In this document: in pieces, positions 12,190-34,580 of the stretch
Layout of the letters: the number at the start of each line of letters is the position of its first letter
Position numbering within the stretch: position 1 is the first letter of the stretch
NCBI GenBank assembly: GCA_951406725.2
Contig: OX597825.1
Span: 56,668,001 to 56,732,000, forward strand
Direction of reading: 5' to 3'
From: Octopus vulgaris
Lineage: Eukaryota
DNA length: 64,000 nt
Program-made: the position numbers and the translations under genes
Notes under the pieces: model-generated
What the model was told of the DNA's origin: nothing
Seen by the model: the letters and a program-made list of their open reading frames with translations, nothing else
Database searches by the model: none

Positions 12190-12234
<45 letters not shown>

Positions 12235-12287
12235 GTTTAAATATTTGTTGTGCAAGATTTTTTATGTGAAGTCGTGTGTTGAAACAG

Positions 12288-13258
12288 ATATTGTTGTATT
12301 TAGGAATGGTATTTTGCCAGTTTAGCCAATAAAAACACACGCACTATATATTTGGTGTTACTTTGCTTCAGTGTTATTTATTTTTTACATTAATCTTAAT
12401 CTTATTTCGGCCAGAGTTCTTTCGTCACACTCCTGTGACCGCATCAGTGGTCCTTTGTTTTCTTCTTACTTATTTGTGTCTCTCCTTACTAACCGTCAGC
12501 CATTTTGTATTTCTATTGTATGTCTTCATTTGCGCATGCTTATATCTCTATGTGCCTTTATGTTTATTTAGTGTGTGTATGTGGGGGATGCCTGTAATAT
12601 TTGTATCTTCTGTTTATATATGTTCATGTAATTTGTAATTTTATATGTTCATCTAATTTGTTCATGTAATTTGTATTTTGTATTTTGTTTTTTGTTTTTT
12701 GTTTTGTTTTTTTTGTTTTTGTTGTTTTTGTTTATTCTTATTTTGTTCATGTGTTTACATCCACCCATTATTATCATTACATATGCTTGTGTGTATGTAT
12801 GTATGTATAACAACAATACTAGTAATAATAATAATAAATTGAATCGAAAAAAAGACAAAACAAAAAACAAAATACAAACCACAAATTACATGAACAAATT
12901 ACATGAACATATAAAATTACAAATTACATGAACATATATAAACAGAAGATACAAATATTACAGGCATCCCCCACATACACACACTAAATAAACATAAACG
13001 CACATAGAGATATAAGCATGCGCAAATGAAGACATACAATAGAAATACAAAATGGCTGACGGTTAGTAAGGAGAGACACAAATAAGTAAGAGGAAAACAA
13101 AGGACCACTGATGCGGTCATAGGAGTGTGACGAAAGAACTCTGGCCGAAATAAGATTAAGATTAATGTAAAAAATAAATAACACTGAAGCAAGGTAACAC
13201 CAAATATATAGTGCGTGTGTTTTTATTGGCTAAACTGGCAAAATGACCATTCCGAAAT

Positions 13259-13269
<11 letters not shown>
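12288..13269. mobile_element. Inverted-repeat PLE-pLTR-like insertion (~400-bp arms)
   Basis: 12288-~12700 is the reverse complement of ~12850-13269 with a few substitutions. Near-identical ORFs lie at 12363(+) and 13192(-). (TA)n flanks. Confidence 0.85.
13102..13146 (+). ncRNA. Hammerhead-like motif with variant core; inverted copy 12409-12453 (-)
   Basis: GGACCA-CUGAUGCG-GUCAY(aggagu)GUGAC-GAAAG(aa)CUC-UGGCC. CG replaces the canonical A9. Confidence 0.55.
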
Positions 13270-15308: not shown

Positions 15309-15565
15309 ATATTAATTGAAGGTAAAAATATTTCTACGATCCCACTTCTAAGGAAGTTATATCAACGAGAAATAAACGAACATCTTTTTTTATTCATAAA
15401 AAATGTGACGTTCGTAACAACAGCCAAAGGGAGGATTTCATTATGATTTAATGTTGGAATGTTTGGAAAGCATGTTCAATCATCGATATTATAGTATCTT
15501 CTTCATCTATTTCTTTGAGAGAAATAAAGAAGAGCTAAGAACATTCTTGAATATTCCTAAAGAAC
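15307..15565. repeat. ~260-bp near-identical inverted duplication (partner 18881-19138)
   Basis: Direct reverse-complement comparison shows only a few mismatches. Confidence 0.9.
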
Positions 15566-15594
15566 ACCACACTTCAATTTCGAGGCTATTTTTC

Positions 15595-18837: not shown

Positions 18838-19217
18838 TTTCTTTTTATCCTTCATTACGTTTATAATGTATGTGCGCGTTGTTCTTTAGGAATATTCAAG
18901 AATGTTCTTAACTCTTCTTTATTTCTCTCAAAGAAATAGATGAAGAAGATACTATAATATCGATGATTGAACATGCTTTCCAAACATTCCAACATTAAAT
19001 CATAATGAAATCCTCCCTTTGGCTGTTGTTACGAACGTCACTTTTTTTATGAATAAAAAAAGACGTTCGTTTATTTCTCGTTGATATAACTTCCTTAGAA
19101 GTGGGATCGTAGAAATATTTTACCTTCAATTAATATCAGTACCATTGTTATGATTACTCACACATCATTCTAACTACCCTCACATTGTTAGAACTGCCAC
19201 TCAAACATTATTAATTA

Positions 19218-30780: not shown

Positions 30781-31786
30781 CCCTTTCTCTCTCTCTCACA
30801 CGTACACGCTTTCTTTTCTTCTGGCATGCCTACAAGCAAATAAGCACGGTACATGAAGAGAAGCCAGATGCATGGATAAGTAAATAGATACATTCATAAG
30901 GGTTATAGATGCATAAGTAATTAACATTAGGATAATTAGAGATAAACTTCGGGATAATTTCATACAGAACTTCGATATTAATTGCAGATTAATTAGAAGG
31001 TAGATTATTAGTATAGGTGAGAATGCTAAATGACTACGTTGCTATAGTCTTGGAACATATTTGGGAATATGATTATCTATTCATTTCCATCTCGTAATAA
31101 ATCATATCATGGCTATGTAATGGAATGTGTGTATCTGCAAGTTTTGAGTATTCTGTAGTTGCAAGGAATTAAAGGTAAAAGTAAAGTTTCTTTCTCGAGT
31201 CATACCGACTCATAAGGGTCCGTTTCCCGGTTTCCGTACTGTATAAATTACCCACCCGGACGCGACGCCGGTCCGTCGCAAGATCACTCATTTTTGCTAG
31301 CTGAGTGGATTGGAGCGACGTGAAATTAAGCGTTTTGCTCAAGAATACAATGCGGCGCCCGGTCCAGGAATCGAAACTACAATCTTTCGATCATGAGTCC
31401 AACGCCATAACCACTAAGCCACTCGTTTCCACTTGCAAGAAATTGTTGTTTGTTCCTTCTCGGAGCCACGCCTGGCTTATAGAGCCGGTTTCCTGGTTTC
31501 CTTGTTACCACTTTCACCCTCCTCAAAATATACCAAATTTTATTTAATTTGCTTTGCGGGAAGGACTGTTTCAACGAAGTCGTGTATTGTCCTTGCCTTC
31601 GGGAACGTGGAGTATTTGAAACAGGGACAACTGATGAAGGGAAATATTTTTTATGTTGCATGTCTCGTTCCCTGTCTTTTCATTGTTCGAATAAAAGTTC
31701 GTTTTCTATGTTTTTGATTTTATGTTTTCGTTTCTCATTGTGTTCAACGTTTTTTTTAATGTCCTGTACCCATATATGCATATATT

Positions 31787-31817
<31 letters not shown>

Positions 31818-31969
31818 GTGACGTATATTTGCCATCTCAATATGGCTACCCCTAAGGGTGGATGCTACTGTAGTTTTTAGCCCCAGGAGGACACACTCCT
31901 CCAGCTGGCCATAGACACACTTTCTGTGTCCTGTCAGTATTTGCAAAGGGAAGTCATCCTTCCCGTCTT

Positions 31970-32039
31970 CAACTTATGATACACACGGACTCGAGTTTCG
32001 AGGTATTGACCTCTCGTCAGCGTGTGACAATCATAGTTG
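31970..32039 (-). ncRNA. Type I hammerhead ribozyme, copy 1 of 5 on minus (others 32322-32391, 32674-32743, 33026-33095, 33378-33447)
   Basis: Minus strand reads CACACG-CUGACGA-GAGG(ucaaua)CCUC-GAAAC(ucga)GUC-CGUGUG: full CUGANGA/GAAA/NUH core with stems I-III. Stem I extends via UAUGAU/AUCAUA and CAAC/GUUG. Confidence 0.92.
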
Positions 32040-33572
32040 TCGGCGAGAATTAGATTTCCTTCACAAATACTTATACTTTTTCCAGCGTCCACTGTCGCTG
32101 ATATTGAAAAAGTGAAATCAAACAATGATAAATATCAAAGTGAGTTATATACAGTAGCGGTAACACATCGTGACGTATATTTGCCATCTCAATATGGCTA
32201 CCCCTAAGGGTGGATGCTACTGTAGTTTTTAGCCCCAGGAGGACACACTCCTCCAGCTGGCCATAGACACACTTTCTGTGTCCTGTCAGTATTTGCAAAG
32301 GGAAGTCATCCTTCCCGTCTTCAACTTATGATACACACGGACTCGAGTTTCGAGGTATTGACCTCTCGTCAGCGTGTGACAATCATAGTTGTCGGCGAGA
32401 ATTAGATTTCCTTCACAAATACTTATACTTTTTCCAGCGTCCACTGTCGCTGATATTGAAAAAGTGAAATCAAACAATGATAAATATCAAAGTGAGTTAT
32501 ATACAGTAGCGGTAACACATCGTGACGTATATTTGCCATCTCAATATGGCTACCCCTAAGGGTGGATGCTACTGTAGTTTTTAGCCCCAGGAGGACACAC
32601 TCCTCCAGCTGGCCATAGACACACTTTCTGTGTCCTGTCAGTATTTGCAAAGGGAAGTCATCCTTCCCGTCTTCAACTTATGATACACACGGACTCGAGT
32701 TTCGAGGTATTGACCTCTCGTCAGCGTGTGACAATCATAGTTGTCGGCGAGAATTAGATTTCCTTCACAAATACTTATACTTTTTCCAGCGTCCACTGTC
32801 GCTGATATTGAAAAAGTGAAATCAAACAATGATAAATATCAAAGTGAGTTATATACAGTAGCGGTAACACATCGTGACGTATATTTGCCATCTCAATATG
32901 GCTACCCCTAAGGGTGGATGCTACTGTAGTTTTTAGCCCCAGGAGGACACACTCCTCCAGCTGGCCATAGACACACTTTCTGTGTCCTGTCAGTATTTGC
33001 AAAGGGAAGTCATCCTTCCCGTCTTCAACTTATGATACACACGGACTCGAGTTTCGAGGTATTGACCTCTCGTCAGCGTGTGACAATCATAGTTGTCGGC
33101 GAGAATTAGATTTCCTTCACAAATACTTATACTTTTTCCAGCGTCCACTGTCGCTGATATTGAAAAAGTGAAATCAAACAATGATAAATATCAAAGTGAG
33201 TTATATACAGTAGCGGTAACACATCGTGACGTATATTTGCCATCTCAATATGGCTACCCCTAAGGGTGGATGCTACTGTAGTTTTTAGCCCCAGGAGGAC
33301 ACACTCCTCCAGCTGGCCATAGACACACTTTCTGTGTCCTGTCAGTATTTGCAAAGGGAAGTCATCCTTCCCGTCTTCAACTTATGATACACACGGACTC
33401 GAGTTTCGAGGTATTGACCTCTCGTCAGCGTGTGACAATCATAGTTGTCGGCGAGAATTAGATTTCCTTCACAAATACTTATACTTTTTCCAGCGTCCAC
33501 TGTCGCTGATATTTTCCAGCGTCCACTGTCGCTGATATAAAGTATTTGTGAAGGAAATCTAATTCTCGCCGA

Positions 33573-33642
33573 CAACTATGATTGTCACACGCTGACGAGA
33601 GGTCAATACCTCGAAACTCGAGTCCGTGTGTATCATAAGTTG
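33573..33642 (+). ncRNA. Type I hammerhead ribozyme, copy 1 of 3 on plus (others 33925-33994, 34276-34345)
   Basis: caactatgattgtcacacg CTGACGA gagg tcaata cctc GAAAC tcga GTC cgtgtgtatcataagttg. Predicted cleavage after 33624, 33976 and 34327. Confidence 0.92.
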
Positions 33643-34535
33643 AAGACGGGAAGGATGACTTCCCTTTGCAAATACTGACAGGACACAGAAAGTGTGTCTA
33701 TGGCCAGCTGGAGGAGTGTGTCCTCCTGGGGCTAAAAACTACAGTAGCATCCACCCTTAGGGGTAGCCATATTGAGATGGCAAATATACGTCACGATGTG
33801 TTACCGCTACTGTATATAACTCACTTTGATATTTATCATTGTTTGATTTCACTTTTTCAATATCAGCGACAGTGGACGCTGGAAAAAGTATAAGTATTTG
33901 TGAAGGAAATCTAATTCTCGCCGACAACTATGATTGTCACACGCTGACGAGAGGTCAATACCTCGAAACTCGAGTCCGTGTGTATCATAAGTTGAAGACG
34001 GGAAGGATGACTTCCCTTTGCAAATACTGACAGGACACAGAAAGTGTGTCTATGGCCAGCTGGAGGAGTGTGTCCTCCTGGGGCTAAAAACTACAGTAGC
34101 ATCCACCCTTAGGGGTAGCCATATTGAGATGGCAAATATACGTCACGATGTGTTACCGCTACTGTATATAACTCACTTTGATATTTATCATTGTTTGATT
34201 TCACTTTTTCAATATCAGCGACAGTGGACGCTGGAAAAAGTATAAGTATTTGTGAAGGAAATCTAATTTCGCCGACAACTATGATTGTCACACGCTGACG
34301 AGAGGTCAATACCTCGAAACTCGAGTCCGTGTGTATCATAAGTTGAAGACGGGAAGGATGACTTCCCTTTGCAAATACTGACAGGACACAGAAAGTGTGT
34401 CTATGGCCAGCTGGAGGAGTGTGCCTCCTGGGGCTAAAAACTACAGTAGCATCCACCCTTAGGGTAGCCATATTGGATGGCAAATATACGTCACGATGTG
34501 TTACCGCTACTATATAACTTACTTTGATATTTATC

Positions 34536-34580
<45 letters not shown>

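Follow-up and report, generated by a model that had tools for sequence, protein, structure and literature searches.

The window analysed here, a stretch of 64,000 nucleotides of the Octopus vulgaris genome (contig OX597825.1), carries a genuine head-to-head insertion of a 352-base ribozyme repeat inside a TA microsatellite. The insertion is young, its element is a non-coding hammerhead retrozyme with a 352-nt unit, and the locus is made up of the following parts:

31772..31817, no strand: left (TA)n target, formed by the TA-rich terminus of an older dispersed repeat (flank-repeat paralogues 87-91% identical)
31818..33513, minus strand: left arm of 4.82 units of 352 nt, all identical, its RNA 3' end falling at unit 255 (short site A) and its 5' end at unit 320
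33390..33434, minus strand: innermost left-arm hammerhead, computed from the identity of the arm to the unit
33486..33511, minus strand: first copy of a 26-mer at the inner end of the left arm, unit 347 to 322, exact duplicate of 33512-33537
33512..33538, minus strand: second, templated copy of the 26-mer, with TT microhomology at 33512-33513, halting again at unit 321
33539..33539, no strand: single A at the strand switch, fitting neither arm
33540..34538, plus strand: right arm of 2.84 units, beginning in RNA sense at unit 1 (5') and ending at unit 301 (3'; long site B)
33586..33630, plus strand: type I hammerhead ribozyme (RF00163, 32.2 bits, E 3.3e-06; gathering score 34)
34268..34520, plus strand: outermost right unit, lacking six bases through five deletions and carrying one substitution, the other units being identical
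34495..34538, plus strand: one-sided "tail" of the right end (unit 256-301), which the left end lacks
34539..34577, no strand: right (TA)n target, flanking the right arm

The whole 2.7-kb insertion consists of 352-nt units alone and holds no RT plus GIY-YIG reading frame. Against 33540-33891 (+) as the reference unit, the reverse-complemented left arm shows zero mismatches across 1696 nt, and the first two units of the right arm match exactly. The initial annotation had the arms meeting at their RNA 5' sides and reaching (TA)n at different unit phases, neither of them at the cleavage site. All of this is borne out, with inner ends at unit 320-321 (left) and unit 1 (right), outer ends at 255 and 301, and cleavage predicted after unit 85. 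The left flank has no second copy in the assembly that could serve as an empty allele, and five paralogues of the left-flank repeat do not run on into the right flank.

It is very improbable that the junction is an assembly or fold-back read artefact. The junction is known from the assembly sequence alone, and the many deletions in the outermost right unit (34268-34520) resemble long-read consensus errors and are possibly just that. Against an artefact, the arms are unequal and end at two different family sites, the flanks of the insertion are not inverted copies of one another, and 28 other inverted loci are of the same design. Contigs from four DNA-type runs lack cover at 33520-33532, a gap that is uninformative; an insertion this young may be private. 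The outer left arm of another locus, L050, is likewise deletion-rich, and consensus errors in a palindrome are possible there too.

Elsewhere in the window, at 12234-13265, an unrelated second head-to-head insertion lies between two (TA)n tracts. Its arms pair with 97% complementarity across 398 nt, the outer end of the left one reaches about 60 nt further than that of the right, and a hammerhead-like core can be recognised by eye near 13106-13150; it looks like another Penelope-type insertion with a tail. An inverted 242-nt pair (15325-15566 / 18880-19121) is 99% complementary and 3.3 kb apart, with an interior that matches common repeats.

The hammerhead spans unit 47-91 and has a palindromic helix III, a form described in part of PMC4209133 as acting as a dimer. 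Cleavage is predicted after 33624; a second right-arm copy lies at 33938-33982, and identical left-arm copies occur every 352 nt down to 31982-32026. At the Rfam gathering threshold there were no matches in the window, and the hammerhead surfaces only at the E-value threshold. The unit has a GC content of about 0.43 and the monomer is predicted to be strongly self-paired, with a linear fold z of -5.79 and a circular fold of -117.4 kcal/mol (z -5.95 vs 60 shuffles). It shares these structural features with non-LTR retrozymes: tandem units between 150 and 450 bp long that each carry a type I hammerhead, a strongly self-paired monomer, a dispersed, non-autonomous and multicopy distribution, and GC below 50%. 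The family's insertions contain nothing but unit sequence.

A search with the unit returned 180 matches from the best 40 of 3081 candidates, and the family has many young copies. The 55 loci analysed comprise 40 distinct sites from this search (window included), which were chosen as best full-unit matches and are therefore a biased sample, and 15 from an 80-nt query without length selection. Overlapping duplicates of one site were excluded (L004-L009, replaced by the window, and L017, L021, L027 and L030), L019 and L020 were merged, and repeats of known sites were removed from the 80-nt set. L166 was left out of the haplotype, diagnostic-site and mosaic counts, and L087, in which an inverted repeat is present with its second end not located, was left unscored.

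Across these 55 loci, 84 arm 3' ends were placed: 50 at unit 253-258 (A), 31 at unit 297-306 (B) and three elsewhere. The two windows, about 46 nt apart, make up 4.5% of the unit and hold 81/84 ends. The phases 255 and 301 seen in the window are therefore fixed family-wide sites, and the permuted ends that had been read into them are refuted, in substance by the criterion that the initial annotation had itself set; with them falls the argument for rolling from permuted ends. Retrozyme relatives of 74% and 82% identity terminate near the same two sites, and contigs from other samples pass from unit 301, 304 and 255 into TA-rich sequence. A TA-like 16-mer adjoins 93/110 ends, and where the target is not pure TA, target duplications were seen (about 10 bp at L001, 12-13 bp at the inverted L034). 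The 5' ends are unclustered (Rayleigh P 0.15), with 0/84 at unit 84-88, although a stretch of 5 out of 352 positions is too small for this to count as depletion.

The best TA match of the unit (274-280) never serves as an end, so the sites are probably not set by annealing but by RNA structure or protein. This bears directly on a model in which reverse transcription rolls around a circle from free, permuted starts given by chance annealing to (TA)n. Arms of up to six units, 151 clean passes across the cleavage site, the lack of 5' ends there and the stable circular fold would all suit such a model, but with starts fixed in 81 of 84 cases, and in the 74-82% relatives as well, and with the best TA match unused, it is hardly credible.

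A head-to-head arrangement was found in 29/55 loci, the inverted copies being 5'-truncated. Every classifiable inverted locus pairs one A end with one B end (26/26, with no A+A or B+B pair; binomial P 1.5e-8 for p=0.5), the remaining three having one odd end each. The count becomes 25/25 if L165 and L166 are taken as a single event; these mirror-image copies, seemingly of a single insertion, are separated by about 1 Mb of contig C1, which suggests segmental duplication. Of the 29 longer arms, 15 are A and 14 are B. Within each inverted locus the arms agree at all shared diagnostic sites (28/28), while 588 of 752 cross-locus control pairs are discordant. In 6/29 inverted loci neither arm contains the other, which excludes fold-back copying of a target-bound first cDNA at those loci. 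The other 26/55 loci are single-armed (23 A, 3 B), so that a second priming event would be non-obligatory or its product lost.

The reading that we prefer, at a probability of roughly 70%, is that the two arms were primed from both nicked strands of the (TA)n tract on one RNA, by a Penelope-like RT-endonuclease acting in trans. The enzyme would nick both strands, and each nick would prime one cDNA on the same RNA, one from site A (unit 255-258), its partner from site B (unit 301-305). Both would extend a variable distance, often over several units, before the cDNA ends were joined via short microhomology or templated patches, the 26-bp duplication being one such patch. Of the earlier proposal of priming from both (TA)n strands with joining on the 5' side, the core is thus supported by the pairing rule, the same-haplotype arms and the non-nested arms, while its free, permuted starts have to be given up.

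Self-priming would lead to much the same layout by a different route: a palindromic intermediate would form by fold-back, and the endonuclease would trim one end at A on integration, leaving a one-sided tail. Self-priming has been published for Adineta Penelope elements (a section of PMC3846280), and "EN-mediated resolution" is named in part of PMC8557442. It predicts same-haplotype arms and A+B pairs and, with trimming, permits the six non-nested loci; an extrachromosomal hairpin trimmed later at A would likewise yield A+B, same-haplotype, non-nested arms, which counts against double priming. However, the inner ends are neither palindromic nor close. They show no small-loop bias (KS P 0.73), their phase distances are uniform over 1-176 nt, and the arms within inverted loci differ in length by up to 1.5 kb. 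Furthermore, both sites are direct RT starts in vitro (PMC11167929), and 23 single-arm loci end at A without a partner arm. Self-priming is accordingly considered unlikely.

The duplication at the junction, 33486-33511 repeated at 33512-33537, is exact and 26 nt long, as first reported. The TA microhomology proposed for the switch fared less well: a 2-nt TT is present at the duplication, but A33539 matches neither arm, and microhomology at the switch point emerges solely when one extra A is allowed. The left arm halts twice at unit 320-321, which is a bulge in the predicted hairpin, and pausing or slippage of the RT at this bulge may account for the repeated stop. Templated patching by end-joining repair would give an identical 26-bp pattern. 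Among the junctions of the 29 inverted loci, 16 have 1-4 nt of microhomology, one is blunt, six contain inserts of 1-27 nt and six, the window locus and five others, carry an extra templated segment of at least 20 nt. Because such segments recur at other junctions, the duplication is ordinary for the family; it had been taken as a footprint of double-primed rolling reverse transcription, and is instead a common by-product of joining in this retrozyme family that is not diagnostic of a circle.

The form of the template has to be judged from the units themselves. The longest arms have six units, and none of the 151 passes across the cleavage site has an indel within 5 nt. In 35 loci, 86 substitutions are fixed through successive monomers (seven of these variants are private to one locus, one of the seven being known from two copies only), and 39 loci carry 18 internally uniform haplotypes. 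Some step must therefore copy one monomer repeatedly. A circular monomer template is plausible, at about even odds, and its combination with double priming at two fixed sites is a little less probable than that. Seven of 42 multi-unit loci are mosaic and four of these are register-consistent (M019, L032, L036 and L039). In M019, L032 and L036 both arms share the mosaic pattern in register from the 3' end, which points to both arms beginning in the same monomer, and the single-arm L039 mixes haplotypes; such mosaics point to multimeric or changing templates. Multimer length would thus likely come, in some loci, from one monomer copied over and over, most simply as a circle, and in the rest from templates that are multimeric or that change.

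A linear cleaved monomer jumping at the cut site was also considered and is disfavoured, with 5' ends and indels both absent there. Contigs from four runs, only guessed to be RNA, span the whole unit and wrap round, as tandem DNA would do likewise. In these runs (X13, X16, X19 and X20; query 33625-33976) the sole contig over unit position 30 carries G. This position is mixed in the genome, and the G in the guessed-RNA runs may mean that few donors are expressed.

Double priming could also have relied throughout on linear transcripts of donor arrays, multimeric and uncleaved, with no circle involved. The register-consistent mosaics speak for this, as do ribozyme mutants that had no effect on insertion in vitro (PMC11167929). 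The window units belong to the commonest haplotype, a ranking that the query itself biases, so a homogeneous donor would suffice, and at this locus a linear transcript of a uniform donor array looks the same as a circle. The monomer-fixed variants and uniform haplotypes, on the other hand, demand repeated copying of a monomer, and we regard an exclusively linear template as somewhat doubtful. It departs from the preferred reading of two arms primed on one RNA in template form alone, and confidence in the two overlaps. A more specific version of the preferred reading, held tentatively and at slightly better odds than the linear template, has a Penelope-like RT dimer on one retrozyme circle, each strand primed at its own fixed site and both subunits rolling by strand displacement. 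If true, the strict A+B pairs, the same-haplotype arms and the monomer-fixed private variants would be genomic proof that Penelope inverted repeats, tails and retrozyme multimers stem from one reaction.

The same genome carries intact elements with RT plus GIY-YIG that are inserted in (TA)n. They were sought via GIY-YIG (6136 candidates, 150 scored), and both autonomous families examined have (TA)n ends at two fixed points about 30-40 nt apart. Inverted copies bear the tail on a single arm in 5/5 cases (L098, L168, L169, L170, L179) and 1/1 (L086). One very young family (L131-L160, L168-L180) has a 775-aa frame, and its 76 scored copies are about 100% identical; some copies lie in tandem with a spacing of about 4.27 kb (L171, L172), and others form large head-to-head pairs. 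In 93 Penelope-like loci, most from two families, the unit showed no similarity to the pLTRs. Its sole matches there were to 74-82% relatives, and two that were viewed are separate from the element. These older retrozyme relatives lie at L091 235-505, L098 5076-5313 and L146 4001-4198, and two of them end near 258 and 301. Because the examined pLTRs share no sequence with the unit, it is from insertion anatomy that we infer mobilisation of the retrozyme by a Penelope-like protein.

Metazoan non-LTR retrozymes, as far as they are described in the relevant parts of Cervera and de la Pena 2020 (PMC7229834) and 10.64898/2026.07.22.740005, share with the octopus family non-coding tandem units between 150 and 450 bp in length, each with a single type I hammerhead, a GC content below 50%, dispersed multimers and a stable predicted circular fold. 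The same parts propose that they spread via circles copied by LINE or Penelope-like RT, and circles have been put forward as templates for more-than-unit cDNA in sections of PMC7229834 and PMC4209133. Head-to-head arms and fixed 3' ends are seen in the octopus family and do not feature in the consulted portions of these retrozyme descriptions. The preprint of Li et al. 2026 (10.64898/2026.07.22.740005) ties retrozymes to Penelope pLTRs, in contrast to the octopus unit, for which no pLTR homologue occurs among the 93 loci.

The layout matches that of endonuclease-bearing Penelope-like elements, which, in the parts of PMC3846280, PMC8557442 (Fig. 2) and PMC11167929 that bear on their structure, have head-to-head copies, random 5' truncation, two fixed 3' ends, a one-arm tail, (TA)n or AT-rich targets and occasional target duplications of about 10-13 bp. 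An inverted 5'-truncated copy with a one-sided tail is given as typical of them in passages of PMC8557442 and PMC3846280. In vitro, a purified Penelope-like protein cleaved both strands and extended them, initiated at two internal RNA sites that bound the tail, and had uncleaved RNA as its main substrate, RNA cleavage being unnecessary; the protein is predicted to dimerise, and inverted copies are not discussed in the main text of that work (PMC11167929). The origin of tandem and inverted Penelope copies with a one-sided tail is named an open question in part of PMC8557442, and the enzyme mobilising animal retrozymes has so far been inferred from co-occurrence and homology. The octopus family ties both questions together through insertion anatomy alone. 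It provides counts that any model must satisfy, namely one arm per start site and one template per insertion, and, with a 352-nt RNA whose two start sites are mapped, it offers a small substrate for the in vitro assay already in use. In the open-access literature, supplements aside, we found no statement of strict two-site double priming (twin priming) for Penelope, or of inverted retrozymes.

The locus is thus a new member of its family, with the published Penelope-like layout and a junction that is itself ordinary. It differs from Penelope-like elements in having no ORF, a tail of about 46 nt vs the usual 30-40 bp, a canonical rather than minimal hammerhead, and arms that are multimers of a short unit. 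In L1 twin priming, two target-primed cDNAs on one RNA are likewise joined at their 5' sides by microhomology, and the joins carry small duplications or insertions; there, however, the internal site to which the second primer anneals varies, and the arms are non-overlapping. In the octopus retrozyme both starts are fixed, 46 nt apart, the arms fully overlap and there is no poly(A).
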